Assembly (NCBI GenBank): GCA_964247135.1
Contig: CAXTTL010000105.1
Coordinates: forward strand, 1 to 16,188
DNA length: 16,188 nucleotides
Source of the DNA: an uncultured Deinococcales bacterium
GTDB lineage: Bacteria; Deinococcota; Deinococci; Deinococcales; JAAFIG01
Direction of reading: 5' to 3'
Part shown: piece after piece, positions 89 through 16,188 of the stretch
Position numbering within the stretch: the first letter of the stretch is position 1
Layout of the letters: each line of letters begins with the position of its first letter
The notes under the pieces: generated by a model
Database searches by the model: none
What the model was told of the DNA's origin: nothing
Seen by the model: the letters and a program-made list of their open reading frames with translations, nothing else
Program-made: the position numbers and the translations under genes

Positions 89-1339
89 TTACAAACCAGC
101 TTGGGTGCTGAGTGTCACCATCTCAAAGCCCGCAGCTCGAGCGTCTTGCAACAAGTCCACCAAGATTGGCGCGGTCTGCTGGGCGTTATCGTGAAGCAAG
201 ACGATAGCACCAGGATGCAATCGTCTGAGGAGGCGATTCTCGAGGACAGTTGCACCAAGGTTGTTGAAATCCCCTGGATCATCGGTCCAAAACGCGGTCG
301 TCATGCCGAGTTGCCGTGCGATTTTCAAGACGTTGCTCGAGTAACGCCCGCCAGGAGGACGGAAGAAACGTACGGGTTTGCCACTGATGGCGCTAATCAC
401 CCGATTCGCTCGAGCGAGTTCGGTTCGGATGGCAGCGTTCGAGAGGTTGTTCAGACGCACATGATGGTAGGTGTGGTTGGCGAGTTCGTGTCCATCCTTC
501 ACCAGGTCGCGCACGAAATAAGGGTACGCCTCGACATTGCGACCCACCAGGAAAAAGGTTGCCTTGCCACCACCAAATTTAAGCGCATCGAGCACCAACG
601 GCGCGTAGATGGGATGCACCGCATCGTCAATCGTCAATGCCACCCGTTTTGAGTTTGGCGAGCCATGATAGTACACGAGGTGCGAAGGCTGAAAACCATT
701 TTGCGCCTGCTCGAGTTTTAACGCCCGTTGTGTTTGCACATCTGCGCTCGAACCCTCGAGCTTTGGTTTGATTTCTTTTACTGTTGGATCGGTTGCGCCG
801 GTGGCTTCGATTTCTGGAGCCTCTGGCGTATTTGGATTGACCCACAAGCGGTCGTAATCATCTTTTCCAGGTTTGAGGTTCAAAAATTCTGCAAGGCGGG
901 CGCGTGGCACACTGGCGGTGAAGTACGGCAGTGGTCCACCGAATCCAGCGTAATCCTCACGGCGGTAAACGCTGACATCCACTTCAGCCAAGCTTGGTCG
1001 CGCCCCAAATGCCTGTTTCACCACCATTTGCGCCAGTGGCAAAATCAAATCAAGCTTGCCGTTTTTGCTTGGCACAAGCACCAGCGCTCCAGCCACCTCG
1101 ATGTGACCATTGCTCAGATACTCGAGCTTTGCAAGTTCGCGGATTCTGGGCACGAGTTTGATTTTGGAGAGTGCCGCGACTTTCCTGAAACCTGGTGCAA
1201 TTGGTTGTCGTGCGCCGGGTGTGGCTTGATTGAGCGTGAGGCTTGGCATTGTTGAAATGGTGTTTGGATTTGGACGGGCAAACGACCACGATCCTACGGC
1301 AACGGCAAGCAGCATAACGATGATCCATACATGTTTCAC
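89..1339 (-). CDS. Exported polysaccharide deacetylase (CE4/NodB domain) with an N-terminal domain of unknown function
   Basis: C-terminal CE4 motifs TIDDA, HELANHTYHH, RFFRPPGG, DPGDF and IVLLHD. Hydrophobic N-terminal signal. GTG at 1339 follows an AGGAG RBS; the ORF track start TTG 1375 is in frame but has no RBS. Confidence 0.9.
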   Translation of the reverse strand: MKHVWIIVMLLAVAVGSWSFARPNPNTISTMPSLTLNQATPGARQPIAPGFRKVAALSKIKLVPRIRELAKLEYLSNGHIEVAGALVLVPSKNGKLDLILPLAQMVVKQAFGARPSLAEVDVSVYRREDYAGFGGPLPYFTASVPRARLAEFLNLKPGKDDYDRLWVNPNTPEAPEIEATGATDPTVKEIKPKLEGSSADVQTQRALKLEQAQNGFQPSHLVYYHGSPNSKRVALTIDDAVHPIYAPLVLDALKFGGGKATFFLVGRNVEAYPYFVRDLVKDGHELANHTYHHVRLNNLSNAAIRTELARANRVISAISGKPVRFFRPPGGRYSSNVLKIARQLGMTTAFWTDDPGDFNNLGATVLENRLLRRLHPGAIVLLHDNAQQTAPILVDLLQDARAAGFEMVTLSTQAGL

Positions 1340-1390
1340 AAGGTCTCCTGATACGTTTTTTGCACTTTGCTTCAATTGACCTGTCGCTGT

Positions 1391-1573
1391 TCAAGGCAAG
1401 ATATTGACCGCCCGACCAGCGACCAATGCCACCGTCACTGGTGTAAGCAGTGCCAATTCAAAGGTGGAAGCCAACCAATTTGGTTCGAGCGTCAATTTCT
1501 CGAGCAAGGTCAACTGAAATCCCGATGATAATGATGACCGCCACCGTGGCAGGCAAGCAGCTTCTGAGCGCAT
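1391..1573 (-). CDS. Small 60-aa ORF, possibly a leaderless small protein or a decayed membrane-protein remnant
   Basis: ATG lies exactly 6 nt after a TGn-CAAAGT extended -10 and 21 nt after a conserved box, mirroring the divergent gene at 1659. The C-terminal half is hydrophobic. No family recognised. Confidence 0.4.
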   Translation of the reverse strand: MRSEAACLPRWRSSLSSGFQLTLLEKLTLEPNWLASTFELALLTPVTVALVAGRAVNILP

Positions 1574-1658
1574 GTTGCCACTTTGTCACTGCGAGGTTTA
1601 GGTTCGGTATAGAAAAGTCTTATACCAAACCTAAACCAGCAGGTGGCATTCTGAAGCC
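1574..1658. promoter_or_regulatory. Symmetric divergent promoter pair with two inverted 17-bp tandem-repeat boxes (1595-1611 and 1621-1637)
   Basis: Plus strand: TATACCAAACCTAAACC-AGCAGG-TGG-CATTCT-GAAGCC-ATG(1659). Minus strand: TATACCGAACCTAAACC-TCGCAG-TGA-CAAAGT-GGCAAC-ATG(1573). Spacing is identical on both sides. Confidence 0.75.
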
Positions 1659-2060
1659 ATGAAACCAATCGTTCACCCCAACCACGCGTTGCCACCCAGT
1701 CAAAACCAGGCGATGCAGGTGTTCCACGATGACCTCGAGCCAGCAGCGCCCATATACCAGCGTGTAATTCCAGAATCAGCCGCCCATACGCTGGCGCTCG
1801 GTACAACCGATTACGGTGCAAACTATTACCTGAACGGAAAACCTTTGTATGACGGGTCAAAAATTGCGCTCGAGGTCTTCTGGGGCTGGATCGAGGGTTT
1901 GTTTACTTGGACGGGCAACTTGTACGACCAACCAAAACTGGTGTTCTTTGGGGGTCAAACTGCACTCGTCCTCGAGCCGACTGCGGTGTTGAGTTGGATG
2001 AATCCATGCGCGGCATCATTAAACCCAACGCGTCAACGCAAAGTCTCAGTCAGAGGTTGA
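1659..2060 (+). CDS. Hypothetical protein, possibly a DUF5348-like small beta domain
   Basis: 133-aa ORF with a leaderless promoter directly upstream. The segment YYLNGKPLYDGSKIALEVFWGWIEG loosely recalls DUF5348 proteins (weak, from memory). Confidence 0.65.
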   Translation: MKPIVHPNHALPPSQNQAMQVFHDDLEPAAPIYQRVIPESAAHTLALGTTDYGANYYLNGKPLYDGSKIALEVFWGWIEGLFTWTGNLYDQPKLVFFGGQTALVLEPTAVLSWMNPCAASLNPTRQRKVSVRG

Positions 2061-2359
2061 CCAATCCACCGAGCCTCGAGCAACTTGCTTTTTGCATCGC
2101 AACGCGTGAACCGACCAGGGGTTTGACGGGTTCAGGTCACACGGACTCAAATTGCTTGCGGCTGATTTTCTCGAGCCAAAAGGCATCACACGTTCCTTGA
2201 ATCGAGCGATGCAGGACTTCATCTCGAGTTCATTGGATCGGTAAATACTCGAGTATTAAAAGAAGGTGGGTGGAAGCGTTTGAACATGACAAAAACGACG
2301 AGGTTTGAACAGTCACCATTTTCATGGCTGCGAGATTTCTCAGCCACCGCGACACTTTA

Positions 2360-4258
2360 ATGCGCCGCATCAGCCTGGCTGACCGCATCCGTTACCGTTT
2401 TGACAGCGAAGTCGCTCGAGGTCCATCGGTCTTGGTGGTCTGGTTGATCGTCTTCGCCTTGCTGCTGGTGCTGATCTTGGCGTTCGCGGTGGTCATCACC
2501 CACCTCAGTCCATCCCAAGACAACAAAGTGCCCAGTGTCACGCAACAGCTTTGGACTGGACTGCTGCACTTTTTGGACAACGGCAACATCTCCAACGATG
2601 CCCTGGCTGGCGGTTGGGGTTATGTGCTCCTGATGCTCACCATCACCCTGGTTGGCATCCTCTTCTCGGGGGCATTGACGGGGATTATCACCAACGGGCT
2701 TGCCGCCAGACTCGATGCGATGCGCAAGGGTCGCTCGTTCGTGGTCGAAACCAACCACACCCTGATCCTCGGCTGGTCAAGCCAGATCATGCCCGTGATC
2801 GAAGAACTGGTGCTCGCCCACAACAATGGAACTCGAGCCTGCATTGTGATCTTGGCAGACCGCGATAAGGTCGAGATGGAAGACCAAATTCATGCCAAAC
2901 TGCCCAAAACAGGAATGGTTAAAATCGTTTGCCGCACCGGAGACCCAATCGACCTGACCGATCTCGAGTTGGTCAACCCGCACGCCGCCAAAAGCATCAT
3001 CGTGCTCGCCCCCGATGAAACCTCACCGGATTCCTCGGTCATCAGTTCGGTGCTGGCGATCACCAACAACCCCAACCGCCGCACCGAGCCGTACCACATC
3101 GTGGCGGTGATTCACGATGAGCACAACCTCGAGGCTGCCAAACTGGTCGGGCAGGAGGAGGCAGAATTTGTCTTGGCGGGACAATTGATCTCGAAAATCA
3201 CCGCCCAAACCTGCCGTCAATCGGGACTCAGTGTGGTCTATAGCGAATTGCTGTCCTTTGCTGGGAATGAAATCTACCGCTTGAGCCTGAGTGAGTTTTG
3301 GGGGAAAACATTTGCCGAGACCCTCTTTGCCTTCGAGCAAGCCAGTGTGATCGGACTGATTGAGCCAAACGGTACGGTTCGCTTAAACCCACCGTCAACG
3401 ACCGTACTCGAGGGGCAATCGCAACTGATTGTGATCGCGCAGGATTCGACTTCAATCCGACCCTCGAGCCGCCAAGCACTGATTGATCCAAACCTCATCG
3501 TCAAGGCACAAGCGCCAACCAAAACCACCGAAAGCACCCTGATTCTGGGGTGGAATCGCCGTGCCATGACAATCATCGATGAACTCGACGGCTATGTGAT
3601 GGCTGGCTCGAGCGTCACGGTGGTGGCTGATCTCGAGCAACCAAATGATTTCAACCAAAGCAACCGTGGCATCCGGCAACAAAGCCTTCGTTTTCAACGG
3701 GGTGATCCCACCGACCGCCGCGTCCTCACGGCGCTCAACCCCGAGCGTTACGATCATGTGGTCGTGCTAGCGAGCGAGGCGCTCAGCCCCAAACAGGCGG
3801 ACGCGGCAACCCTGGTCACGCTGCTGCACCTGCGTGAACTGAAAAGCCGTGCAAAAGCCGAGTTCACCATCGTCTCCGAGATGCTCGACCCGCGCAACCG
3901 CGAACTGGCTGAAGTCACGCAAGCCGATGATTTTATCATCAGCGAACGCCTGGTCAGCTTGGTCGTGGCGCAACTCAGCGAGGACTGGACGCGAGCCACG
4001 ATCCTCAAAACACTGTTCTCGAGCTTGGGCGGCGAGTTGTACCTCAAACCCATCTCGAGCTACGTCAAAACCGGAATCCCCGTTTCGTTCGATACCGTGC
4101 TGGAAGCCACGCGGTCTCGAGGGGAACTCGCCATCGGTTACAGGTTGTTGCGCTACGGGCGGGATGCCAGCAAAAACGAGGGCGTGGTGCTGAACCCAAA
4201 AAAGTCTGAGCTGATTGTTTTTGCCCCAGAGGATAAAGTCATCGTGGTCGCCGACTGA
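2360..4258 (+). CDS. CASTOR/POLLUX/DMI1-like ion channel (TM-pore-TM plus tandem RCK domains)
   Basis: N-terminal RIRYRFD, then TM1, pore helix LWTGLLHFLDNGN, TM2, RKGRSFVVETNHTLILGWS, CRTGDP, a second RCK starting LILGWN, and SEMLDPRNRELA. The start may be the in-frame ATG at 2324; 2360 better matches typical homolog N-termini. Confidence 0.88.
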   Translation: MRRISLADRIRYRFDSEVARGPSVLVVWLIVFALLLVLILAFAVVITHLSPSQDNKVPSVTQQLWTGLLHFLDNGNISNDALAGGWGYVLLMLTITLVGILFSGALTGIITNGLAARLDAMRKGRSFVVETNHTLILGWSSQIMPVIEELVLAHNNGTRACIVILADRDKVEMEDQIHAKLPKTGMVKIVCRTGDPIDLTDLELVNPHAAKSIIVLAPDETSPDSSVISSVLAITNNPNRRTEPYHIVAVIHDEHNLEAAKLVGQEEAEFVLAGQLISKITAQTCRQSGLSVVYSELLSFAGNEIYRLSLSEFWGKTFAETLFAFEQASVIGLIEPNGTVRLNPPSTTVLEGQSQLIVIAQDSTSIRPSSRQALIDPNLIVKAQAPTKTTESTLILGWNRRAMTIIDELDGYVMAGSSVTVVADLEQPNDFNQSNRGIRQQSLRFQRGDPTDRRVLTALNPERYDHVVVLASEALSPKQADAATLVTLLHLRELKSRAKAEFTIVSEMLDPRNRELAEVTQADDFIISERLVSLVVAQLSEDWTRATILKTLFSSLGGELYLKPISSYVKTGIPVSFDTVLEATRSRGELAIGYRLLRYGRDASKNEGVVLNPKKSELIVFAPEDKVIVVAD

Positions 4259-4275
4259 GTGGAATGGAGGATCGC

Positions 4276-4671
4276 GTGAAGCGATTGATGGTTTTAAGCC
4301 TACTGGTGGTGATTTGGAGTGTTCTGGCGACACCCTCCAAACCTGATGCCATGAGCGCTCGAGGTCAACAGATCAGTCATTCGCTGGCAGTGTTGCTTCA
4401 CGGCACGTCCAAAGTCTGTCCGATGTCCAACCAGGATCAGCCAGACCCGCGATGGAATTGTATTTCCAGTGAGTTGACTTTAGACCAGGTTGAGAACTTG
4501 ATGTCTCGAGCGACAAAAGGAAGCGGCGCACTGACTGGTTTAAAACAAACCGATCCTTGGGACGATGATGCCGGAACGCATTTGAGTTTCGGAGACTCGA
4601 GTTTGTACTCAGCCAATGTTTTTGTTGAAAACCAATCGCGGGTGTTGGTGCTGCATGAAATTCACCCTTGA
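4276..4671 (+). CDS. Hypothetical secreted protein
   Basis: GGAGG RBS at 4266-4270 before GTG 4276. Signal peptide MKRLMVLSLLVVIWSVLA. Two Cys. Lies 17 nt after the channel stop. Confidence 0.7.
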   Translation: MKRLMVLSLLVVIWSVLATPSKPDAMSARGQQISHSLAVLLHGTSKVCPMSNQDQPDPRWNCISSELTLDQVENLMSRATKGSGALTGLKQTDPWDDDAGTHLSFGDSSLYSANVFVENQSRVLVLHEIHP

Positions 4672-4758
4672 TGATGCACCCATTTTACAAACCAAAATCA
4701 CTGTTCCACAGCTTCATGATGCTATATTCAGACTGATCCAAGAATTTAATCCTCGAGT

Positions 4759-4806
4759 GATGGCGGGGTTTTGTGTTGGTCGGATAGACCACTCAAACCC
4801 GCCATC
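4759..4806 (+). other. Intergenic stem-loop upstream of the small ORF/ROK operon
   Basis: GATGGCGGG (4759-4767) pairs with CCCGCCATC (4798-4806). Inner TGGTC/GACCA stem with a GGATA loop. No U-tract. Confidence 0.55.
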
Positions 4807-4830
4807 TGATCCACCGAAAGGAAAACTGAC

Positions 4831-5696: not shown

Positions 5697-5710
5697 CCAA
5701 GGAGTCAGTT

Positions 5711-6817: not shown

Positions 6818-6831
6818 GCCTGTGAAACCAT

Positions 6832-7773: not shown

Positions 7774-8085
7774 GTGCTTCTAAGACCAGCACAATGAGCT
7801 TAAAACCATCGACAAGTCAGAACCAAATGGGTCGTTTAAAAACCACAGAAACTAAAAACGCCCGATGGTCTGTTGCTCGAGGTTTCGGGGTCGTTCCAAG
7901 CCGATTGGGTCTCCGAACAATTTGGGCGAGTGGTTGATCAAACGCATCGGTATCATGTCACCTCATTGGTTTGAGGGTCGCTTCGATTCTTGACAATTGT
8001 GGCTGGTGTAGCTGACCTGTTGCTGACTGAACGTGCGTTAAATACAGCCACTGATTCGTTCATGCGGATTGGCTTTGGAGGCTGG

Positions 8086-9093
8086 ATGAAGAAAATAGCC
8101 CTTGGTATGCTTGCAGCAGGTGCGCTCGTCACGGTTGCATTTTCGCAATCGCCAACCCCAATCGTGTTGTACTCGGCAATTGGATACGGACAAGCCGTTG
8201 CGGATGCGTTCACAAAATCGACTGGAATCCCCGTCAAACTCGTTGACCTTTCGACGGGTCCATTGGTGGCAAAAGTTCAGGCTGAAAAGCAAAACCCGCA
8301 GTGGAATCTGGTTTGGTTTGACGGGGCTGAAGCCATGCGCGATCTCGCAAACCAGGGCTTGCTCAAAAAAGGCTGGTCTCCTTCAGTCAAGTGGAACGCG
8401 CTTTCCAAACAAGTTCGACCTGTTGACAAGGCATATGTTCCAGGTGGTGTCACCCTTGCGGGTGTCTTTTTGGTCAACACCAAACTGGTCGCCGAAGACA
8501 AAACCCCGCAAAGCTGGCAAGACCTGACCAAACCCGAATGGAAAGGCTTGGTTGGGATGCCAAACCCAGCCGTATCAGGACCAACCTATCCGTTGGTGGC
8601 TGGCTTGATGCAATCCCTTGGTGGCATCGATCAGGGCAAGGCATTCTTGAGTTCGCTCAAAAACAACGGTCTTCAGGTTTTTGATACCGGCGGTCCTCTG
8701 GTCAAGCAATTGTACGCCGGTGCAATTGCCGTGGCGGCGACCCAGAGCACCCGAGGTGTGGCTGGTTTGGTCAATAAGGAAGCGGTGCGGGTTGTTTTTC
8801 CAAAAGGCGTCAGTTTGTTGCCCTCTGACTTTGGTCTGAGTGCCAAGTCAAGCCCAGAGGTGCTGGCTGCCAGCAAGCGTTTTATCGAGTTTTTCTTGTC
8901 GCCCGAAGGACAAAAGGTGGCGCTCGAATCTGGCGACAGCGACGGCTATTACTACCCCGTCGTCGAGGGTGTCAGCGCAAATCCGCTCGCCATGCCAATC
9001 GAAAAAATTCAGTATCAAAAGGTTGACCCTCTGATCTGGGGTCCACGCGAAGCCGAGATCAACACCTGGTTTGCGAATTCGATTGCCAGGTAA
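8086..9093 (+). CDS. ABC transporter substrate-binding protein (Fe3+/AfuA/2-AEP/thiamine-like cluster)
   Basis: GGAGG RBS before ATG 8086. Signal peptide MKKIALGMLAAGALVTVAFS. Motifs AEKQNPQWNLVW, PQSWQDLTKPEWKG, NPAVSG and FFLSPEGQ. Confidence 0.88.
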   Translation: MKKIALGMLAAGALVTVAFSQSPTPIVLYSAIGYGQAVADAFTKSTGIPVKLVDLSTGPLVAKVQAEKQNPQWNLVWFDGAEAMRDLANQGLLKKGWSPSVKWNALSKQVRPVDKAYVPGGVTLAGVFLVNTKLVAEDKTPQSWQDLTKPEWKGLVGMPNPAVSGPTYPLVAGLMQSLGGIDQGKAFLSSLKNNGLQVFDTGGPLVKQLYAGAIAVAATQSTRGVAGLVNKEAVRVVFPKGVSLLPSDFGLSAKSSPEVLAASKRFIEFFLSPEGQKVALESGDSDGYYYPVVEGVSANPLAMPIEKIQYQKVDPLIWGPREAEINTWFANSIAR

Positions 9094-9099
9094 GACCAA

Positions 9100-10866
9100 G
9101 TGGCTGCACCAAGGTTCAAACCTGCCAACCTGAGTGCCCGACCAAGATTTGGTCGGGCGTTTGCTCATTTTCCACAGAGGCTGCTGGCTTGGTTGGGTGG
9201 CTGGTTTGTGGCGCTTGCGGTTGGGGTATTGTTGGTGTTTCCGTTGGTCAGTTTCTTGTTGTTGTCGTTCATTCCAGGCTTGTTTGGTCAGGCAGGCGGT
9301 GGAATTGGTTCGTTTCAGCGGGCACTTGATGGTTACGCGCTCGAGGCATTGCGCAACACCATGTTTGTTGGCTTGGTTTCGGCGCTGCTGTCGGCGGTGA
9401 TGGGTGTGTGGTTGTCTTGGCTCCGACAGCGCACCGCTTTGCGTGAGGCGAGCGCCATCGAAGGTCTGATGTGGGTCTTGTTGCTCGCACCGTCCTATCT
9501 GATTTCGGTCGGTTGGATGACTCTGGTGCAGCGCGGTGGGGTGCTCTCGAGCCTGGGTTTCGAGTGGTCATGGTTGCGCGATTTGATTCTGGGTCCATGT
9601 GGTGTGGTGATCGTGCTGGCACTCAAACACTTGCCATTTGCCTATTTGGCAATCGCTCCAGGTTGGAACGCAGTTGGTGGCGAACTCGAGGAGGCATCAC
9701 AGGTGCATGGGGTGACGGCGCGGCGCAGCATGAGGCTGACCGCACAGTTGCTGACACCAGCCTTTACGGCTGCCTTCGCGGTTTGTTTTGCCGAATCGCT
9801 GGGTGATTTTGGTGTCGCCAGCACCTTGGCGGCAAACGCGCATTTTCCGGTGGCGACGTTTGCCATCTACCGTGCCCTGTACGCCAATCCACTCGATTTT
9901 CCGCTGGCTTCAGCTACAAGCTGGCTGCTGCTGATCGCCTCGGGTGTGGCACTGGCAATTCAGGCTCGGGTGGCGCGTCGCGCTCGAGCCTATGCTGCTT
10001 TTGGTGGACGCTCGAGACCACCACGTCGGGTACGCCTCTCAAGGTCTGGTGCGCTTGCCACCCGGGTTGGTTTGTCTGGCTTGGTCTTGCTGGCATTGGG
10101 GATTCCCGCACTTGGAACGCTGGCGAGCGCCTTCACCAACAAGCTCTCGGACGGGCTGAGCCTTCACAATTTGACGCTCGAGCATTTTGTTCGGGCGGCA
10201 CGGGTTGGTCTGTTTGGCTCGTTTTCATTTTCGGCGTCTATGGCTTTGATTGCGGCAACACTGGCGGTGCTGCTTGGTTTGGGTTTGGCGGGTTTGCTGT
10301 CTCGTCCAACGCCCCTGGCTCGAGGGCTTGATCTGGCACTGCTCGGTGCGATGGCATTGCCTGGGTTGGTGCTGGCGGCTGGGTATATCTTTGCCTTCAA
10401 TCAACCGTTCTTGCCCTTGTACGGAACACCCATGCTGTTGTGCGCCGCCTATGCGGCTGGGGGAATGCCTGCCACCAGCCGTCTGCTGCTGGGTCCAATC
10501 GCACAATTGCATCGCAGCCTTTCAGAATCGGCGCAAGTTCATGGTTTGCGTCCATTTTCGGTGTTGCGTTCGATCACCATGCCGTTGCTGGCAGTTCCAA
10601 TGTTTTCTGCCTGGTTGCTGGCGGCAACCCATGTCATGTTCGAGCTGCCGATGAGCGAGTTGCTCTATCCGCCCGGTTCGCCTCCATTGCCGGTGGCGCT
10701 CGTGACGTATACCAACAATTTTGAGTTTAGCTTAGGTGCTGCCCTGGAACTCGAGGCGGTTGCGCTGGTCTTGCTCGGGGTCATGCTGGCGCGTTGGTTG
10801 TTCGCCCGCCTGACGCCTCCTGGCTGGCGACGCGGTGCGCTTGAACCAAACGGGCGGCGGCAATGA
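9100..10866 (+). CDS. ABC transporter permease, fused double domain (FbpB/AfuB-like)
   Basis: About 12 TM segments with two EAA loops (LEEASQVHG, LSESAQVHG). GTG start 6 nt after the SBP stop. Confidence 0.9.
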   Translation: MAAPRFKPANLSARPRFGRAFAHFPQRLLAWLGGWFVALAVGVLLVFPLVSFLLLSFIPGLFGQAGGGIGSFQRALDGYALEALRNTMFVGLVSALLSAVMGVWLSWLRQRTALREASAIEGLMWVLLLAPSYLISVGWMTLVQRGGVLSSLGFEWSWLRDLILGPCGVVIVLALKHLPFAYLAIAPGWNAVGGELEEASQVHGVTARRSMRLTAQLLTPAFTAAFAVCFAESLGDFGVASTLAANAHFPVATFAIYRALYANPLDFPLASATSWLLLIASGVALAIQARVARRARAYAAFGGRSRPPRRVRLSRSGALATRVGLSGLVLLALGIPALGTLASAFTNKLSDGLSLHNLTLEHFVRAARVGLFGSFSFSASMALIAATLAVLLGLGLAGLLSRPTPLARGLDLALLGAMALPGLVLAAGYIFAFNQPFLPLYGTPMLLCAAYAAGGMPATSRLLLGPIAQLHRSLSESAQVHGLRPFSVLRSITMPLLAVPMFSAWLLAATHVMFELPMSELLYPPGSPPLPVALVTYTNNFEFSLGAALELEAVALVLLGVMLARWLFARLTPPGWRRGALEPNGRRQ

Positions 10867-11933
10867 GCGGTATTCGACTCGAGGGGGCTTGGAAACGATT
10901 TGGTGGTGTTCAAGCCCTGGCGGGGGTTGATTTGCGGGTTGAACCAGGTGAATTTGTGGTTCTGCTCGGACCGTCGGGTTCGGGCAAGACCACCCTTTTG
11001 CGGGCGCTGGCTGGACTCGAGCCGCTCGATCAAGGGCAGGTCTGGTTGGGTGAGCGTTTGGTCGAGGATGCCAAAACGGGTTTGCGCCTGCCGCCCGAAG
11101 GTCGAGGTTTGGGTATGGTGTTTCAAGAATACGCGCTGTGGCCACATCTCAGTGTGCTCGAGAATGTCGCCCTGCCGCTCCGAGAACGTCGGATTTTGGA
11201 TTGGAAACCCAGGGCGCTGGAGGTGTTAGAAAGCGTTAGTTTGGATCAATTGACGACCCGTTTTCCATTTGAACTCAGTGGTGGACAGCAGCAGAGGGTG
11301 GCTCTGGCTCGAGCGCTCGCCGCCCGACCCCAAGTGCTTTTGTTCGACGAACCGCTCTCCAACCTCGACGCCCAATTGCGGGACGAGTTGCGCCTCGAGA
11401 TTGCTCGCTTGACCCGTACCCACGAGATCAGTGCCGTTTATATCACCCACGATCAATCGGAAGCATTTTTTCTGGCAGACCGCTTGGGTGTGATGTGCAA
11501 CGGGCAACTGGTTCAATTTGATCTACCAGAACGTGTTTACGCCGCGCCTGCGACTCCTTTTGTGGCGCATTTCACTGGGGCGCTCGGCAACCTCGAGGCA
11601 CAATTACACGGTCTTGACTTGCGGTTTCTTGGGTTGCAACTTGCGCTTCCAGCCTCTGATCCAAGCCCAAGTTACCCGCAGGGGCGGGTTCGGGTCAGCC
11701 TGCGTCCCGAAGCCTTGAGGGTACACCGCAGCCCGCAAGCGCAATCGCTTGAAGTCTCACTGCTTCATTGCGCCTACAGTGGCGGGCATTACCAGTGCTG
11801 GTTGGGTTTGCCTGACGGTGAACGCCTGCTCGCTCATAGCAATGAACGCCTGTCGAAACTTGGGCAGGTGTGGCTGACGTTTGATGCGGCGCGTTTGCTG
11901 ATTTTTAACTCAGATCCGAAGGGAGTAAGATGA
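10863..11933 (+). CDS. ABC transporter ATP-binding protein (FbpC/PotA-like)
   Basis: Walker A GPSGSGKT, signature LSGGQQQR, Walker B LLFDEP, H-loop ITHDQ and a C-terminal TOBE-like region. ATGA overlap with the permease stop. Confidence 0.93.
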   Translation: MSGIRLEGAWKRFGGVQALAGVDLRVEPGEFVVLLGPSGSGKTTLLRALAGLEPLDQGQVWLGERLVEDAKTGLRLPPEGRGLGMVFQEYALWPHLSVLENVALPLRERRILDWKPRALEVLESVSLDQLTTRFPFELSGGQQQRVALARALAARPQVLLFDEPLSNLDAQLRDELRLEIARLTRTHEISAVYITHDQSEAFFLADRLGVMCNGQLVQFDLPERVYAAPATPFVAHFTGALGNLEAQLHGLDLRFLGLQLALPASDPSPSYPQGRVRVSLRPEALRVHRSPQAQSLEVSLLHCAYSGGHYQCWLGLPDGERLLAHSNERLSKLGQVWLTFDAARLLIFNSDPKGVR

Positions 11934-11942
11934 TATTGTTCA

Positions 11943-11980
11943 ACAAAGCACTCGAGCCTCAGCACGCTCGAGTGCTTTGT
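11943..11980 (+). terminator. Perfect 15-bp stem hairpin after the ABC operon (terminator or mRNA stabiliser)
   Basis: ACAAAGCACTCGAGC (11943-11957), an 8-nt loop, then GCTCGAGTGCTTTGT (11966-11980). Starts 9 nt after the stop. Only a weak U-tract. Confidence 0.6.
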
Positions 11981-12028
11981 GATCTAGAATGAAGACCAGG
12001 ACAGGTTCTGAATGATTTGTCCAAGACT

Positions 12029-12048
12029 CAAAATTGAGATCAATTTTG
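12029..12048. promoter_or_regulatory. AT-rich 9-2-9 palindromic operator candidate
   Basis: CAAAATTGA-GA-TCAATTTTG is a perfect inverted repeat 24 nt before the ATG at 12073. A TAGAAT -10 candidate lies at 11985-11990. Confidence 0.5.
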
Positions 12049-12072
12049 TGACATGGCATGAGGGGTGGATTC

Positions 12073-12828
12073 ATGAGCGGATGGTTTTTATTTCTGGCAA
12101 CGTTCCTCGCAAGTGCAGTCGAGATGGTCGAAGCTTTGACCATCATCTTGGCAGTTGGTCTGACCCGAGGTTGGCGCTCCGCCCTGATCGGTACGACTGC
12201 GGCGCTGCTGGCATTGACCATCATCGTGGTTGTTTTTGGTCCCGCCCTCAGCCGGATTCCACTCGAGACTTTGCGCTTGGTGGTTGGCGGTCTGCTCTTG
12301 ATCTTTGGAGTCCAGTGGTGGCGCAAAGCGATCCTGCGTGCCAGCGGCTTCAAAGCCCTCCATGACGAAGATGCAACCTTTGTTGAGGAAACCGAAACCG
12401 CCAAACATCAACCACAAGATCAGCGCATTGGTCTTGATTGGTACGGCTTTACCTTGAGTTTTAAAAGCGTTTTGCTCGAAGGACTCGAGGTGGCATTCAT
12501 TGTCGTGACCTTTGGCGCAAGTGCGCAACGGGTTGATCTTGCCGCGCTCGGTGCTGTTGCCGCATTGTTGATCGTTTTATTGGCAGGTGTGTTGTTGCAC
12601 AAACCCCTCAGCCTCGTGCCAGAAAACACCCTGAAATTTGCGGTTGGTTTGATGCTTTCGAGCTTCGGGACATTCTGGGCTGCCGAAGGCGCGGGCGCAC
12701 ATTGGCTCGGCAACGACGCTTCAATCCTTGGGATATTGTTGGTCTATTCACTTGCATCATTTGTCTATGTCACAGTGCTGCGCCGCGAAAAACTGGCTCG
12801 AGTGACACTCAAAGAGGTGAGCGCATGA
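12073..12828 (+). CDS. COG4280-type membrane protein (putative metal transporter with duplicated ExxE motifs)
   Basis: GAGGGG RBS. Internal duplication with FLASAVEMVEALTI and FKSVLLEGLEVAFI. Also QWWRKAILR and VPENTLKFAVG. Multi-pass hydrophobic protein. Confidence 0.8.
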   Translation: MSGWFLFLATFLASAVEMVEALTIILAVGLTRGWRSALIGTTAALLALTIIVVVFGPALSRIPLETLRLVVGGLLLIFGVQWWRKAILRASGFKALHDEDATFVEETETAKHQPQDQRIGLDWYGFTLSFKSVLLEGLEVAFIVVTFGASAQRVDLAALGAVAALLIVLLAGVLLHKPLSLVPENTLKFAVGLMLSSFGTFWAAEGAGAHWLGNDASILGILLVYSLASFVYVTVLRREKLARVTLKEVSA

Positions 12829-13034
12829 AGTACCTGCTTGGCTTCCTCGGTTTTTGGTACGACTTTATCGTTGGTGATGACTGGACGGTGGCAGTTGCTG
12901 TCGTTTTTGCCTTGATTCTCACTGCGTTGATGGCGCGTCTCGAGTTTGCTTGGTTGGTACTGCCGGTGGTGGTGCTTGGATTTCTGGGTGTGAGTCTTTG
13001 GAAAATCACCAGCAAACTAACGAACAAATCATGA
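12825..13034 (+). CDS. Small 69-aa two-TM membrane protein (FWYDFIVGDDW motif)
   Basis: GAGGTG RBS and ATGA overlap with the upstream stop. Reads MKYLLGFLGFWYDFIVGDDWTVAVAVV, followed by two hydrophobic helices. Confidence 0.75.
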   Translation: MKYLLGFLGFWYDFIVGDDWTVAVAVVFALILTALMARLEFAWLVLPVVVLGFLGVSLWKITSKLTNKS

Positions 13035-13751
13035 ACTGCCATGAGCGCGACCACGAACGAGACCAGCGTACCCATAGAAAGCCACCCTGAACGCTCGAGA
13101 GGTCATGGCGTACCTTGTAGAGCTTGTACAGGCTTGACCGACCAATGAGGGGCATTCCCAAATAAAACGAAAATGCGGTTGCGGTCACGCGGTTCAATGC
13201 AGTCAGCATCCCACCGACAATGCTTGCATCAGACCTCGAGATACCAGGAATGAGGGCAACCGTTTGAGTCAGACAGGTGGCCAACGCCCGAACGGGTGTG
13301 ATTGCGTCAAAATCGGGCTGGAGCAGGTTTTCACTGCTGTCATCGTGAACAGCTTTTATTTGCTGCATTTCGATCCACCACAACAAAAACCTACCCACCA
13401 TCAGACTGAGTGCCATCGTGAAAGGCGACAATGATTTTTCTTCGATGGTTTTCTCGAATGCCAAACCAATCAGTGCCGCTGGGATTGTGGCAATCACCAA
13501 GTTCAGCCAAAACGCCGAGTACCACGCGACCCTTGAAACAATCTCGAGATGCGTTTGAGCAAATCTTGGCGGTAATACCAGACGACTGTTAGAATTGCAC
13601 CAATTTGAATCACCACCGTGAAAGTTGCAGCCGTGTCACATTAACCAATCAGGTACTCTGCGACAATCAGATGTCCCGTGCTTGAGATTGGCAGGAATTC
13701 GGTCAGCCCCTCGAGAATACCGAGGAGAACAGCTTGGAAGACTGGCTTCAT
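13030..13751 (-). pseudogene. uppP: Undecaprenyl-diphosphate phosphatase (BacA/UppP) pseudogene
   Basis: Starts [28 protein letters not shown] (BacA motif). In-frame TAA at 13641-13643. One-base deletion in the run at 13509-13512 (RF/WLNL). PGISRSD replaces PGxSRSG. A second frameshift near 13080 precedes GTLVSFVVAL. The C-terminus is missing. Confidence 0.92.
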
Positions 13752-14428
13752 ACATGTACCTCGAGTTTGGATTGAATATGTCCTGGAGGCAACCACAATG
13801 TCACGATGCTGACCCAAACGATAGAGAGAAGGCTGCCCGCGATCACATCTGACGGATAATGCACCCCCAAATACAACCTCGAGAGACTCACCGCTAGGGT
13901 AAAGCCCAAACCGAGCACCATTACCAGAGAGCGCCAGCGTGTCTGCCAGAGCAAAACGATCAATGCCAAGACCACCGCCATACTGCCCATCGCATGTCCG
14001 CTTGGAAAACCAAAATCATGCTCGGGAATCAAACGCGCCCAGAGTTCTGGTCGTGAGCGCTGAAACAAGAGTTTTAATGCCACGTTCATGGCTGCCGCGC
14101 CACCACTCGAGAGGGCTAAAAAAATGGTCTCTTGTGGAAACCCTCGAAACCATAAGACAAACAACAACACAATCACAAATCCAACCACCGAACGAACGTC
14201 ACCCACGTGGGTGATGGCAAGCATGATCTTGTCCAGGTTCGGCGTGGCTTGAGCGTGAATGGTCTTGAGGACAGACACATCCCAAGCGAATGCCTCATGT
14301 TTGAGGAGGTCTTCGGCAATCGTAGCAAAGACCAGGAGCGGCATAACAATACCCAAGGCAGCAACCATCCATTTTCGCCCATGCGTTTTGAAGGTTTGAA
14401 GCAGACTCGAGGGTGGACGGACGATCAT
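13748..14428 (-). CDS. PAP2-family membrane phosphatase (probable undecaprenyl-pyrophosphate/lipid phosphate phosphatase)
   Basis: Catalytic motifs [14 protein letters not shown] and [20 protein letters not shown]. The stop overlaps the uppP ATG. Confidence 0.92.
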
Positions 14429-14484
14429 GACTTCCTCCAGACTCGAGCTTTTGAATCACGTTGGCTCGAGGTTGTTCGGGATGG

Positions 14485-14516
14485 ACTTTATAGATTTGAG
14501 GTTTGGGTTTGGTAAA
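14485..14516 (-). promoter_or_regulatory. Tandem-repeat box plus -10 element for the PAP2-uppP operon
   Basis: TTTACCAAACCCAAACC (14516-14500), 9 nt, then TAAAGT (14490-14485). Region 14498-14521 matches 1593-1616 at 21 of 24 nt. Confidence 0.7.
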
Positions 14517-14553
14517 GAAAAATTCAACCCAGACGGGGGAATCTGGGCTGAAT
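14514..14553 (-). terminator. Rho-independent terminator of the fasciclin gene
   Basis: Minus strand ATTCAGCCCAGA-TTCCCCCG-TCTGGGTTGAAT is a 12-bp stem with one G-U pair, followed by TTTTCTTT, 28 nt after the stop. Confidence 0.8.
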
Positions 14554-14581
14554 CGTTGAACTCAAGATCAGATTGCTTGGG

Positions 14582-15076
14582 TTATTTCATTGCTTTGGGC
14601 ATCAGAACGGTGTCGATCACGTGAATCACGCCGTTGCTGGCGACAATATCTGCCTTCGTGACCTTGGCGTTGTTGATCTCGAGTACCTTGCCCATGACCG
14701 AAATGTTCAGGTCAGAACCTTGAACGGTTTTGGCGGTCTTGCCGTTCATCTTCATCGCGTCAACCGCCATGACGGTTCCAGACACAACGTGGTAGGTCAG
14801 CACTTTGGTCAGTTCTGCTTTGTTTTTCAGCAGGGCGGCAAGGTCAGCTTTTTTGATTTTGGCGAACGCCGCGTTGGTCGGTGCAAAGACCGTAAATGGA
14901 CCTTTGCCCTCGAGGGTCTTCACCAGACCTGCCGCCGTCAGTGCTGTCACCAGCGTACTGAACTGCGGGTCTGATGAGGCAACCTGCACGATGTTGAGCG
15001 AGGCGGCGCTGGTTTGGAACAAAACGGCGGGCATAAAAGCGGCGAGGGCAATGCCTACGAGTGCGAATTTTTTCAT
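14582..15076 (-). CDS. Secreted fasciclin (FAS1) domain protein
   Basis: Signal peptide. H1 motif GPFTVFAPTNAAF, LTYHVV, and H2 motif DIVASNGVIHVIDTVL. GGAGG RBS. Confidence 0.95.
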   Translation of the reverse strand: MKKFALVGIALAAFMPAVLFQTSAASLNIVQVASSDPQFSTLVTALTAAGLVKTLEGKGPFTVFAPTNAAFAKIKKADLAALLKNKAELTKVLTYHVVSGTVMAVDAMKMNGKTAKTVQGSDLNISVMGKVLEINNAKVTKADIVASNGVIHVIDTVLMPKAMK

Positions 15077-15209
15077 GGTTTCCTCCAGGTGAAGCGGTTG
15101 GTTTCGTATGCCGTGATTGATAAGAATGACTTGTTGAGATCACTCGAGGATACGGGTCTCGAGGAGGAATTGGTGCGTTAGACCGTATTCAGTTCAGGCT
15201 CGAACTGAC

Positions 15210-15530
15210 TTATTTGAAGACCACGTATTGCTCGATTTTGGGCCACAATTTTTTACCCGTGACCTCAATTTTGATCATAAATTCTTTACCGTCCTTGTAC
15301 GGACGGTTCAGAATCACGTCGTTGGCGATGCTGGTGACAAAACCTGGCAAGCACTTCATCTGCTCGAGCGGCGCTTTGTTGATGTTGACTTTGGCTTTTA
15401 GAACGGCAACGCAGTTGGTGGCGGCAATCGTTGGTGCGGGTTTGGTTGCGGGCGTTTTTGTTGTGGTCTGTGCGAGGGCGATTCCGGCAACGAGGGCAAG
15501 TGGAGCGAGGATAAACGTCATTTTTTTCAT
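15210..15530 (-). CDS. Secreted helix-hairpin-helix protein (ComEA/PsbU-like)
   Basis: GAAGGA RBS before ATG 15530. Signal peptide MKKMTFILAPLALVAGIALA, a Thr/Pro/Ala linker, then KVNINKAPLEQMKCLPGF..IANDVILNRPYK. Confidence 0.8.
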   Translation of the reverse strand: MKKMTFILAPLALVAGIALAQTTTKTPATKPAPTIAATNCVAVLKAKVNINKAPLEQMKCLPGFVTSIANDVILNRPYKDGKEFMIKIEVTGKKLWPKIEQYVVFK

Positions 15531-15585
15531 GATTTCCTTCTTTCTTTCTGAGCGACAAAGATCATGGTCTGGGTCGGACGAGATG

Positions 15586-15617
15586 AGCTTGACATTGAAT
15601 GGTTGAGATTCGGTATA
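15586..15617 (-). promoter_or_regulatory. Tandem-repeat box plus extended -10 for the HhH gene
   Basis: TATACCGAATCTCAACC (15617-15601; 15 of 17 nt match the box at 1595-1611), then ATTCAA-TGT-CAAGCT. Confidence 0.72.
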
Positions 15618-15688
15618 GCGGTTTGGGTTCATGAATTTGAGGCGTTGTACTCGAGTTTTTCTGAACAACAAGCTCGAGATCAATGCTT

Positions 15689-16090
15689 TTATTTCAGGGA
15701 GTCAATCACCGCGAGCATGTCCTCGAGTGCTTTGACACAGAGTGCCTTGTCGGGTTTGTCTGCCCGCAACTCGAACAAAACCCGATCAAGCGCCAGGTCA
15801 AGTTTGCGCCAACTGACCGTGTTCAGTTTTTTGAGTTTATTGGCTGAAACATTCCAAGCGCTTTCCATGTCTGTGATGCGCTTTTCTGAGGCTTTCAAAT
15901 TGCCAGTCTTGGCAATTTTTAAGCTGTCATCTGCGATCACACGGAATTTACTCAGGTCGCCCAAAGGGGCTTTCGCCTGTGATTGACCGATCCTGGCGGT
16001 TTGTGGTGTTGGGGTTGCAAAACCATTTGTTTGAGCGAACACAATGAGGCTCGAGGCGAGCATGGCAATGGTCAAGAGTTGTTTTTTCAT
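15689..16090 (-). CDS. Secreted all-helical hypothetical protein (LGDLSxFR family)
   Basis: AGGA RBS before ATG 16090 and a signal peptide. The pattern LGDLSKFRVIADD..RITDMESAW..W..LD.ALD..L..LRA resembles a conserved secreted helical family recalled as neighbouring or fused to COG4705 membrane proteins. Confidence 0.75.
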   Translation of the reverse strand: MKKQLLTIAMLASSLIVFAQTNGFATPTPQTARIGQSQAKAPLGDLSKFRVIADDSLKIAKTGNLKASEKRITDMESAWNVSANKLKKLNTVSWRKLDLALDRVLFELRADKPDKALCVKALEDMLAVIDSLK

Positions 16091-16188
16091 GGAATTTCCT
16101 ACTTTGGTTTTGAGGCTCGAGAATGCGTTAGGCGAGTGCATCCTTGTCAAGCACGATCAGGTCGCGTTTGGTGGTGGTCAGGAAAACA

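Follow-up and report, generated by a model that had tools for sequence, protein, structure and literature searches.

Introduction

Cyanobacterial genomes have been known for about thirty years to carry the palindrome HIP1, on whose function there is no agreement. Restriction targets are normally avoided in genomes. In Escherichia coli, very-short-patch repair by Dcm/Vsr results in an excess of CCWGG and a deficit of CTWGG, and the DNA uptake sequences of Neisseria (DUS) and of Pasteurellaceae such as Haemophilus (USS) are spaced rather evenly, have dialects in related groups and, as inverted pairs, terminate transcripts. As described by Elhai (2015) and Xu et al. (2018), the cyanobacterial HIP words (HIP1, GCGATCGC, and the alternates GGCGCC, GCsGC, rCCGGy, GGGATCCC and TCGATCGA) are 15- to 300-fold over-represented, occur in and between genes and are conserved between relatives; Elhai (2015) describes a methyltransferase specific for the word or its core in every HIP genome, and Xu et al. 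(2018) a periodic distribution on a scale of 10–90 kb. For uptake sequences, Findlay and Redfield (2009) report that the encoded tripeptides are approximately doubled, and that the words are absent from genes without homologues and lie at poorly conserved residues. We analysed the hexamer CTCGAG in a stretch of 16,188 nucleotides (the window), in the genome to which it belongs (G000; 5.09 Mb, an assembly of 386 contigs, 84% complete) and in related genomes. No description of this enrichment was found in the literature searched.

CTCGAG in the window

The window contains 86 copies of CTCGAG, exactly the number estimated in the initial annotation, against 3.37 expected (200 dinucleotide-preserving shuffles: sd 1.79, maximum 9, none reaching 86). 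The enrichment noted there is thus real, but the figure of 18- to 20-fold was somewhat low, the shuffles giving about 25-fold. The first copy is at 136 and the last at 16116–16121, and the features relevant to the distribution of the word are as follows.

136..16121, no strand: the CTCGAG set, 86 copies (5.3 per kb), 68 in ORFs and 18 in non-ORF DNA
2075..2253, no strand: four clustered copies between genes (2075, 2170, 2223, 2248), on the upstream side of the channel gene
2324..4258, plus strand: Castor/Pollux-type RCK channel gene (Pfam PF06241, PF02254, PF22614), 11 copies
7882..9339, no strand: CTCGAG-free stretch of 1,458 bases with normal G+C (53%), with a solute-binding-protein gene (7990–9093)
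11945..11980, plus strand: terminator-like hairpin with a 14-bp stem, just past the stop (11933) of an ABC ATPase gene
13006..13760, minus strand: broken uppP/BacA gene (PF02673, profile positions 88–209 only), frame split at least twice
14442..14470, minus strand: intergenic CTCGAG pair, 23 bp apart, 7-bp stem (dG −16.3, z −2.6)
15143..15163, minus strand: intergenic CTCGAG pair, 15 bp apart, short stem (dG −8.7, z −2.3)

The 68 ORF sites fall in the three codon phases as 32/15/21, and synonymous-codon shuffling of the 16 ORFs (1,000 runs) yields 8.3 ± 2.6 sites, with a maximum of 17. Within the channel gene, the split of the 11 copies is 4/3/4, as previously counted, and non-ORF DNA holds its 18 sites in 2,085 bases (8.6 per kb). 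The word also persists in the uppP pseudogene (sites 13094, 13235, 13543 and 13710), where at least three minus-strand frames are found at about 13760–13641, 13640–13503 and 13635–13006. The intergenic sites listed in the initial annotation are in place at 2075/2170/2223/2248, 11951/11967, 14442/14465 and 15143/15158, but the pair 15650/15673 lies inside a called ORF (15210–15683). The hairpin at 11945..11980 carries CTCGAG in both arms (11951 and 11967) and has a dG of −27.4 kcal/mol (z −6.6, matched by none of 200 shuffles); at the four-site cluster, folds of 2060–2110 and 2210–2265 were no better than shuffles (z −0.2 and −0.35), and no strong hairpin was found.

Genome-wide abundance

The genome contains 33,925 copies of CTCGAG, corresponding to 6.7 per kb, or about one per 150 bases, approximately 25-fold above chance, and all 297 contigs of at least 5 kb hold the word (2.6–10.5 per kb), so the enrichment extends well beyond one contig. 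The observed/expected ratio (O/E) is 24.7 with a zero-order, 35 with a first-order and 14 with a second-order model; protein-preserving codon shuffling leaves a 7-fold excess (5.6-, 13.6- and 11.8-fold for the three phases). The dicodon-preserving shuffle, proposed in the initial annotation as a means of refutation, keeps phase-0 hexamers by construction and is hence unusable for that purpose. CTCGAG is the top 6-mer of the genome, the next independent word having an O/E of 5.8 and the next palindrome 3.7; it is the most over-represented word of its length and a short G+C-rich palindrome, as are the words of the HIP class of Elhai (2015). Perfect sites outnumber the summed one-off sites (22,412), all nine pairs of one-off neighbours are near expectation (0.08–1.74), and the number of TCGA copies not within CTCGAG is as expected (20,685 versus about 19,800). 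Flank preference is weak (G at −1, 39%; A at −3, 37%), and beyond ±3 the flanks have background composition, with no conserved sequence past the core of the kind that would define a dispersed repeat element (REP/MITE).

Density is higher in non-ORF DNA (7.40 per kb) than in ORFs (6.52 per kb), and the genic sites are distributed over the phases as 17,072/4,419/6,468 (61/16/23%); like the HIP words, CTCGAG is found in all frames and in non-coding DNA. The suggestion that no Leu-Glu dipeptide effect is involved was half right, since all phases and non-ORF DNA are enriched, but the CTC-GAG phase accounts for 61% of genic sites and, genome-wide, 77% of Leu-Glu dipeptides are written CTCGAG. Among the 956 close non-ORF pairs, 140 have at least three extra stem pairs (14.6% versus 2.7% for the null); such pairs form terminator-like hairpins at gene ends, 36 of 88 lying between convergent genes, and account for less than 1% of sites. 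The CTCGAG-free stretch of the window is one of 26 gaps of at least 1.4 kb in the genome, and the orthologous segment of a relative (G011) has two copies in 967 bases. Most of the 26 gaps are foreign-looking islands of 27–45% G+C, and an island with an MvaI/BcnI restriction-modification (R-M) system has only 0–1.3 copies per kb. The word is consequently a sharp marker of resident versus newly acquired DNA in these genomes, and XhoI digestion would cut this DNA into fragments of about 150 bp.

Distribution and turnover

All 19 genomes of the family, one of which is a closed single contig, are enriched (4.3–6.8 per kb). The order carrying the word looks like Deinococcales; the best single-chain PDB match of RecA is that of Deinococcus radiodurans. 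Its sister families have weaker forms, either 2–3.4 copies per kb or the octamer GCTCGAGC, within which 2,645 of the 3,131 CTCGAG hexamers of one genome (G027) are found. Complete-looking genomes with the weaker forms (marker-gene completeness 99–100%; two are single contigs) may derive from cultured strains. Related genomes form a graded series of 0.1, 2.2, 2.5, 4.7 and 6.7 copies per kb, and the tendency, which most of the order shares, reaches its extreme in the family of the window. The description of CTCGAG as a highly iterated palindrome is thus confirmed genome- and lineage-wide, in coding and non-coding DNA, and the link to Deinococcota suggested in the initial annotation fits both the RecA match and the weaker enrichment of the sister families.

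A comparison of site gain and loss in relatives, as had been proposed, revealed CTCGAG to be the best-conserved hexamer between two congeners: 1,638 of 2,085 sites were kept (78.6%; mean hexamer 46.4%; rank 1 of 1,101). Non-ORF sites behaved likewise (204/263, 77.6%, against a background of 45.8%), and, where the amino acid was conserved, synonymous CTC was retained in 91% of cases before GAG and in 57% elsewhere. Conservation beyond background is a feature of the HIP class as defined by Xu et al. (2018). Loss of the word is about three to five times slower than that of comparable sequence, and losses are even across the three folded positions (138/129/129), so that none of these is an m5C deamination hot spot. 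At Leu-Glu positions shared between genera, occupancy is independent (45.8% versus 42.7%, p=0.62), so it is density that is maintained, not position. A fixation bias towards CTCGAG exists and acts on the DNA itself, affecting genes, spacers and a pseudogene. Under this bias, synonymous positions within the word change about five times more slowly, sites are recruited from all neighbouring words, and the density of sites is kept while their positions are not; newly acquired DNA is not yet affected.

Effect on the proteome

Leu-Glu has an O/E of 2.39, against 1.02 for Glu-Leu, and is 2.4–2.6 times commoner here than in relatives. In orthologue-like pairs its frequency is 0.0159, versus 0.0062 in an unenriched outgroup, which has Leu-Glu at 90 of the 421 positions coded CTCGAG here. 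Across five genomes, Leu-Glu O/E climbs with CTCGAG density (1.06, 1.28, 1.49, 2.07 and 2.39). Causation runs from the word to the dipeptide and not the other way, and the bias has made Leu-Glu about twice as frequent in the proteins. A DNA-level bias can evidently alter proteins to the extent that one word dictates more than three quarters of an encoded dipeptide.

Possible origins of the enrichment

We tentatively favour, by analogy, a recombination drive resembling that of DNA uptake sequences, which may hold CTCGAG in these genomes, although we would not call this reading probable. CTCGAG would be a lineage-wide 'self' word, and a weak, uniform fixation bias would keep about one copy per 150 bp along the chromosome. 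Cells of a naturally transformable group would favour the uptake or recombination of fragments bearing the word, and transformation would spread mutations that make sites and replace those that destroy them; the outcome would be molecular drive, with or without selection for the recognition of self DNA. Like DUS and USS, CTCGAG inflates the peptides that it encodes, lies at poorly conserved residues and is scarce in new genes. ComEC and secretin were found in all five family genomes tested, but ComEC also gives a hit in 10 of 14 controls and is therefore not discriminating. Thermus and Deinococcus are not known to prefer particular sequences when importing DNA, which counts against an uptake mechanism. 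Selection on a protein-binding site, or a repair-based drive acting on all mismatch types, would equally account for the conservation of sites, their even spacing, their effect on the proteome and their scarcity in new DNA.

A bolder reading, which we put forward with slightly greater reserve, is that CTCGAG may be a methylation-independent code for self DNA, with dialects (the hexamer and GCTCGAGC) across most of the Deinococcales-like order, read by a putative sequence-specific DNA receptor or nuclease regulator. If so, it would be the first 6-base palindrome among such words and the densest known, and over half of the Leu-Glu positions in the most extreme family's proteins would owe their existence to it.

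It is rather unlikely, but deserves consideration, that the word is maintained as has been proposed for HIP1, with a CTCGAG- or TCGA-specific methyltransferase marking it and methylation-dependent repair or mismatch correction turning near-sites into sites (Elhai's ratchet), or with the methylated word being functional, in strand discrimination or improved transformation. In form, CTCGAG matches HIP1 and its alternates, being short, G+C-rich and palindromic, present in and between genes and kept between relatives, and the sister-family octamer GCTCGAGC is shaped like GCGATCGC. A genome of the same order (G021) has an XhoI-type pair, a PF04555 endonuclease and a PF01555 methylase, and the octamer-bearing G027 has a homologue of this methylase (63% identity), with no XhoI endonuclease found. 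CTCGAG is reported to be methylated in hot-spring communities (bioRxiv 10.64898/2026.06.24.734251), and HIP1 is reported to aid transformation in a way that depends on methylation. Gene content, however, does not support the methyltransferase link made in the initial annotation. Neither an XhoI-type endonuclease nor the XhoI-linked methylase family (E≤1e-40) was found in any of the 18 other family genomes, yet the latter is present in 20 of 28 genomes of genus g9, itself unenriched (and in 1 of 53 in f2). The search for an orphan methyltransferase shared across the family yielded none: among the five best family genomes, no DNA methyltransferase family member was common to all, PF01555 not being found in the closed genome G011, nor PF00145 in G008. 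The proteins of about 500 aa with PF02384 in these genomes are type I HsdM with HsdS neighbours. D12-class methylases occur in 17 of the 18 genomes, but their main group matches (310 bits) the N4-cytosine enzyme M.CbeI (PDB 7m6b), which we take to be GGCC-specific, and is found in non-syntenic places, the slot of G000 syntenic with G005 holding a GGCC-type NgoPII system. No methylase was recognised as specific for CTCGAG or its core, in a set in which several specificities are unassigned and G000 is 84% complete. Moreover, no single neighbour word is depleted, unlike the expectation for very-short-patch repair, and the even losses give no sign of an m5C deamination hot spot.

It is less likely still that CTCGAG is bound by a chromosomal protein, abundant and dimeric, that is involved in nucleoid organisation, condensation or segregation, with selection keeping a minimum density, a role for which Xu et al. 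(2018) argue in the case of HIP1. A palindrome is a fitting target for a dimer, density hardly varies across genes and spacers (6–7 per kb), and density rather than position is conserved between genera. Locally, sites are spaced more evenly than at random (variance/mean of 0.81 at 250 bp; under-dispersed at 250–500 bp), and the pair correlation of 0.3–0.8 below 30 bp shows mutual exclusion at short range. This exclusion is, however, mostly an effect of coding regions, close non-ORF pairs being at or above expectation. Over the distances analysed (up to 1.5 kb), there was no periodicity in pair correlation up to 600 bp save the 3-base codon period; there is no candidate protein, and per-site selection would be needed at 34,000 sites simultaneously.

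A mutation bias that is neutral and dependent on context, arising in replication or repair and with neither function nor fixation drive, would affect all sequence classes and resident over newly acquired DNA, as is seen, but is highly improbable: six different changes would have to converge on one hexamer from all 18 neighbours, site loss is slowed, and TCGA elsewhere is not in excess. Finally, an artefact or trivial cause (Leu-Glu codon-pair usage, to which the predominance of the CTC-GAG phase might point, a dispersed repeat, or an XhoI-linked library or assembly artefact, the last already doubted in the initial annotation) can be considered refuted by the density of non-ORF DNA, the excess left by synonymous shuffling, the background composition of the flanks and the enrichment of 19 separately assembled family genomes, one of them closed.

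Comparison with known systems

CTCGAG is the target of XhoI, PaeR7I and BsuMI-type R-M systems, and a pair of this type is present in the order (G021), but searches of the enriched family revealed neither the enzyme nor its methylase family, and in the genome of the window the word is 25-fold enriched. Dcm/Vsr resembles the present case as a repair process raising the number of methylase targets; its effect is small and depletes one neighbour, whereas here a 25-fold enrichment depletes none. Chi, too, is a short word in excess, by which self DNA is marked for recombination enzymes, but it is asymmetric and oriented with replication, whereas a palindrome carries no orientation; Deinococcus is not known to have RecBC.

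Similarities to DUS and USS include the thousands of copies, the approximately two-fold inflation of encoded peptides, scarcity in new genes and the presence of competence genes, together with terminator pairs, even spacing and dialects. In contrast, the known uptake words are asymmetric, 9–12 bases long and present at about 1 per kb, whereas CTCGAG is palindromic, has six bases and occurs 6.7 times per kb; for the known words, uptake bias has been demonstrated by experiment.

Like HIP1, CTCGAG is over-represented tens-fold, in all frames of genes and between genes, and has variant words in related lineages. It differs in having six bases in this family rather than eight (with an octamer in a sister family), in its abundance (6,660 per Mb versus 300–2,700 per Mb), in its phylum and in that a cognate or orphan methyltransferase is reported for HIP1, whereas none was found for CTCGAG. 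A second, independent HIP-like case in another phylum, with a different word and graded intensities, provides a comparative handle on the question of HIP1.

Abundance of CTCGAG in the window and the genome

CTCGAG occurs 86 times in the window, against 3.37 ± 1.79 copies in 200 dinucleotide-preserving shuffles, the largest of which held 9 (0/200 reached 86). The 16 ORFs contain 68 sites (phases 32/15/21), and 1,000 synonymous shuffles of these ORFs yielded 8.3 ± 2.6 sites (maximum 17); the non-ORF DNA carries 18 sites in 2,085 bases (8.6/kb). For the 11 channel-gene sites, the initial annotation reported a 4/3/4 distribution across the codon phases, and this count was reproduced. The intergenic clusters that it described were found in place, except for the pair 15650/15673, which falls within a called ORF. 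The uppP pseudogene does retain its sites, as claimed, with at least three frames and 4 CTCGAG still present. The window features referred to here are:

2324-4258: channel gene
7882-9339: solute-binding-protein gene of an ABC operon, 1,458 bases without CTCGAG, normal G+C (53%)
11945-11980: terminator-like hairpin (dG -27.4, z -6.6)
13006-13760, minus strand: uppP/BacA, in three different reading frames (at least two frame breaks)
13748-14428: PAP2 phosphatase gene, directly upstream of uppP/BacA
15210-15683: called ORF containing the pair 15650/15673

The frame breaks in uppP may be due to assembly error, the genome being a metagenome bin. The permease and ATPase genes adjoining the solute-binding-protein gene have 8 and 6 CTCGAG, and the orthologous segment from G011, a closed genome of another genus of the family, has 2 in 967 bases.

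The whole genome (G000; 5,091,702 bases in 386 contigs, 84% complete, 52.7% G+C) contains 33,925 sites, or 6.66 per kb. The observed/expected ratio (O/E) was 24.7, 35 and 14 with zero-, first- and second-order models, respectively, and CTCGAG was by far the top hexamer (next independent word, 5.8). The maximum-order Markov value of 1.24 is uninformative, since the sites themselves supply the pentamers CTCGA and TCGAG, and lower orders were used in its place. Sites are present on each of the 297 contigs of 5 kb or more (2.6-10.5 per kb, median 6.8). The flanks show G at -1 in 39%, C at +1 in 38%, and A at -3 and T at +3 in 37% of sites, with background composition beyond; they are thus nearly free, and CTCGAG is therefore a word rather than a repeat element. 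Outside CTCGAG, TCGA occurs at expectation (20,685 versus about 19,800).

Short palindromes are strongly avoided in this genome, with O/E below 0.5 for 48 of the 64 hexamer palindromes and below 0.1 for 28. Copy numbers of avoided words include GAGCTC 0, GGGCCC 1, CGGCCG 3, AGGCCT 4, CGTACG 5 and GGATCC 7; among tetramers, GGCC has 380 copies (O/E 0.016) and CTAG an O/E of 0.07.

Coding DNA and protein composition

The CTCGAG enrichment is no coding artefact, yet it reshapes proteins. Genes were approximated by 4,233 greedily chosen longest ORFs (minimum 120 aa; 84% of the genome); site density is 6.52/kb in these ORFs and 7.40/kb in the rest of the genome. Genic sites number 17,072 (CTC-GAG), 4,419 and 6,468 by phase. 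A within-gene synonymous codon shuffle, which keeps the protein and a codon usage that is itself already word-inflated, left about 3,030, 325 and 550, giving a 5.6-, 13.6- and 11.8-fold excess by phase and 7.2-fold overall. Leu-Glu is written CTCGAG in 17,072 of 22,198 cases (77%), and its dipeptide O/E from residue frequencies is 2.39, versus 1.02 for Glu-Leu.

G000 was compared with G096, an unenriched outgroup of the order, over 105 orthologue-like pairs (53% amino-acid identity); here and in the comparisons with G005, G011, G042 and G147, the relatives were represented by 200-400 kb samples and orthology means best hits within those samples. Leu-Glu made up 0.0159 of aligned dipeptides in G000 versus 0.0062 in G096. 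Only 90 of the 421 CTCGAG-coded Leu-Glu of G000 were also Leu-Glu in G096, the counterparts of the remainder being Leu-Asp, Leu-Ala, Ile-Glu, Leu-Arg and others; 108 of the 204 Leu-Glu of G096 were retained in G000. Across five genomes, the Leu-Glu excess climbs with site density, from 1.06 at 0.12/kb through 1.28 at 2.2, 1.49 at 2.5 and 2.07 at 4.7/kb to 2.39 at 6.7/kb.

Spacing, neighbours and site-free DNA

The genome has more perfect sites (33,925) than sites with one mismatch (22,412 in total), where chance predicts a ratio of 1:18. Counts of the nine one-off word pairs lie close to expectation (0.08-1.74), with the transition neighbour exceeding the transversion neighbours at every position of the word. 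Pair correlation, computed for distances up to 1.5 kb, revealed short-range avoidance (0.30 at 7-12 bp, 0.81 at 18-30 bp, 0.93 at 45-60 bp), a value of about 1.05 past 60 bp and a sole periodicity of 3 bases. The variance/mean of site counts is 0.81 in 250-bp windows and exceeds 1 from 1 kb upwards because of islands. Tandem copies at 6-base spacing, which would make GAGCTC, never occur. A shortage of pairs at 8-base spacing is explained by the general avoidance of palindromes, here in GAGNNCTC, and was rejected as a special effect.

Across genes and spacers the density is level at 6-7/kb, apart from a rise to 12.5/kb within the first 25 bases past stop codons. Of 956 close pairs in non-ORF DNA, 140 (14.6%, null 2.7%) can be extended to a stem of 9 bp or more, and 36 of 88 strong stem pairs lie between convergent genes, versus a 19% baseline. 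The 66 predicted tRNA genes, some of which may be false predictions, contain 10 sites versus 34 at genome density. These sites lie in 8 of the 66 (e.g. C14:11589-11664 and C157:3282-3357), and two tRNA-Glu have CTCGAG at the 3' side of the acceptor/T stems.

There are 26 stretches of at least 1.4 kb without sites, most of them islands of 27-45% G+C. The following islands, with 27-33% G+C and 1.7-2.6 kb free of CTCGAG, are probably recently acquired DNA:

C13, 4764-6745
C13, 11899-14536
C70, 14174-16418
C20, 7992-9673
C1, 102567-104482

Conservation and turnover

The congener G005 was compared over a 400-kb sample (296,890 aligned columns, 85.7% identity). In this alignment, 1,638 of 2,085 sites (78.6%) were intact, against a mean of 46.4% (sd 8.2) over the 1,101 hexamers that occurred 100 times or more, among which CTCGAG ranked first. 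In aligned non-ORF DNA (30.1 kb), 204 of 263 sites were intact (77.6% vs 45.8%; rank 2/143). Where the amino acid was conserved, CTC was retained in 91.4% of cases before GAG versus 56.9% elsewhere, and GAG in 95.0% after CTC versus 72.8% elsewhere. Single transitions account for most gains and losses, in near-equal numbers at the three folded positions (138/129/129). In the comparison with G011 (139 pairs, 69% amino-acid identity), 163 of 647 phase-0 sites coincided; at shared Leu-Glu, G011 uses CTCGAG in 45.8% of cases where G000 does and in 42.7% where it does not (Fisher p=0.62). Conservation between congeners, together with this independence between genera, indicates that sites are protected in the short term and turn over in the long term. 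The density of CTCGAG, rather than its position, is what persists.

Distribution in the order and in viral contigs

Site density is 4.3-6.8 per kb in all 19 genomes of the family, which represent five genera and are apparently all metagenome bins, one of them closed; genome sizes of relatives are rounded, and relatives are not independent samples. The reversed control GAGCTC is nearly absent from most family genomes too (0-25 copies in 16 of 19). Among 201 sampled genomes of the order, the octamer form GCTCGAGC lies far above its reversed control in many genera of the sister family f2 (e.g. 2,879 vs 27; 3,795 vs 56; 2,645 vs 136) and likewise in three genera of the sister family f5; it is avoided or neutral in g7 and g9, the two largest genera. 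In G027, a sister-family octamer genome, 2,645 of 3,131 CTCGAG are embedded in the octamer.

The hexamer reaches 2.0-3.4 per kb in several of 18 chosen genomes of the order. A similar but less pronounced anatomy was seen in samples of the two closed genomes G042 and G147: O/E was 7.4 and 6.7, respectively, CTCGAG encodes 55% and 48% of their Leu-Glu dipeptides, enrichment extends to non-ORF DNA, and counts stay 3-3.7-fold above those of synonymous shuffles. The sister-family genomes with the weaker or octamer form are 94-100% complete, several of them closed, and G027, G147, G168, G165, G059, G132, G128, G116 and G042 represent possible experimental models.

We infer that the order is Deinococcales or a near neighbour. 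The best single-chain PDB match of the G000 RecA is 1xp8 (548 bits; next, 456), the RecA of D. radiodurans. The five families of the order also agree with Deinococcales in number and genome sizes. Neither ribosomal protein L2 nor RpoB was found in the 84% complete G000, and its RpoA had no PDB match at 1e-30. A search of genome contigs with the channel protein returned 31 loci from other phyla (38-51% identity), none of them CTCGAG-rich, and these loci are therefore of no use for taxonomy or orthology.

At least 120 stretches of viral contigs have three CTCGAG within about 100 bases. Most of these contigs are high in G+C and GAGCTC-rich too, so they are not informative on phages of the family. 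Among the matches listed, five IMG/VR contigs (L255, L247, L246, L329 and L308) combine a CTCGAG density of 3.3-4.9 per kb with near absence of GAGCTC; this order-like signature would be compatible with phages or prophages of these hosts.

Candidate writers or readers of the word

The restriction-modification repertoire of G000 includes four pairs (NgoPII-type, Eco29kI-type, MvaI/BcnI-type and another type II pair), a beta-class methylase that may be accompanied by an endonuclease, two MmeI-like enzymes and a 1,499-aa methylase-helicase fusion. HsdM-like, solitary beta-class and D12-class methylases are also present. The four pairs are located at:

C14, 36040-37936
C178, 2930-4752
C189, 4077-5632
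C51, 8405-10599

These pairs match avoided words of the genome (GGCC for the NgoPII-type and CCGCGG for the Eco29kI-type). CTCGAG density is 0-1.3 per kb in the MvaI/BcnI pair and 8-15 per kb in the genes around it, and the low value makes the pair look recently acquired. In the fusion protein (C112:1668-6167), an N6-adenine methylase domain (Eco57I/N6_Mtase) is combined with a helicase of the SNF2 type.

None of the restriction-modification genes profiled tracks the CTCGAG trait, and no methylase family member was common to all five best family genomes. As candidate writers, the beta-class methylase on C36 (5/18 family genomes), the C207 methylase (9/18) and the type II pair on C51 (REase NF052465; 8/18) were rejected, and the type I HsdM was dropped. 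D12-class methylases were promising candidates, with 17/18 family genomes and 17/17 of g13 against 7/28 of g9 and 15/51 of g7, but are found in 0/3 of the enriched g27. D12 group B was rejected, with 83% identity to another genus and 75% to the congener; it is probably mobile because it is closer to the former. Group A was rejected as M.CbeI-like. The main D12 group scores 310 bits to M.CbeI (PDB 7m6b) and has different neighbourhoods in three genomes. M.CbeI is an N4-cytosine enzyme specific for GGCC. The D12 locus of G005 (C6:78412-80266; M.CbeI-like alpha-class methylase and a 397-aa protein) is syntenic with a G000 slot (C14:35993-37983) occupied instead by the NgoPII-type endonuclease and C5 methylase. 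If both systems act on GGCC, one would have replaced the other at the same chromosomal slot.

The XhoI endonuclease family was found in one of 31 relatives, G021, outside the family. The adjoining methylase has 63% homologues in G027 and G022; homologues occur in 35 of 201 genomes of the order, including 20/28 of the unenriched g9 and 1/53 of f2, and in 0/18 family genomes. A [DNS]PP[YFW] motif scan of the 4,233 ORFs retrieved 38 proteins, and among the 16 searched against Pfam no new DNA methylase was found except C320; motif proteins on C237 (234 aa) and C32 (667 aa) had no Pfam family.

Processes that could maintain the word

A directional fixation bias towards CTCGAG exists at the DNA level. 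It is about equal for every route to the word, acts throughout resident DNA with diminishing returns at short range, and overrides amino-acid choice at weakly constrained residues. Two kinds of process fit: an uptake-like, recombination-coupled drive, and selection for the density of a protein-binding or modified site. We tentatively favour the drive, as a possibility rather than a probability. A recombination-coupled drive, like that described for uptake sequences, would raise and hold CTCGAG. Maughan, Wilson and Redfield reportedly put forward a drive model for uptake sequences in 2010. The group is known for natural competence. ComEC and a secretin were present in the five family genomes tested, and ComEC also gave matches in 10 of 14 control genomes.

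A methylation-linked model of the kind developed for HIP1, the cyanobacterial iterated palindrome, is a somewhat less likely possibility; in its favour, recent HIP1 work links methylation with transformation. Phylogenetic profiling against gene-family presence has been applied to HIP1 (PMC13756078). Elhai 2015 has 0 occurrences of CTCGAG, and no published description of the enrichment was found in a search with subscription journals, REBASE and supplements outside its scope, so prior notice is possible. A patch-repair ratchet on one mismatch type conflicts with the even neighbour spectrum, and a position-specific function of the sites conflicts with their turnover.

The recombination-coupled drive is favoured because the whole set of side effects matches that of uptake sequences. 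Uptake sequences are reported to inflate the proteome, to sit at poorly conserved residues and to be missing from new genes (Findlay & Redfield 2009). CTCGAG is like them in its proteome inflation, its location at poorly conserved residues and its absence from new DNA, and further in its terminator pairs and dialects.
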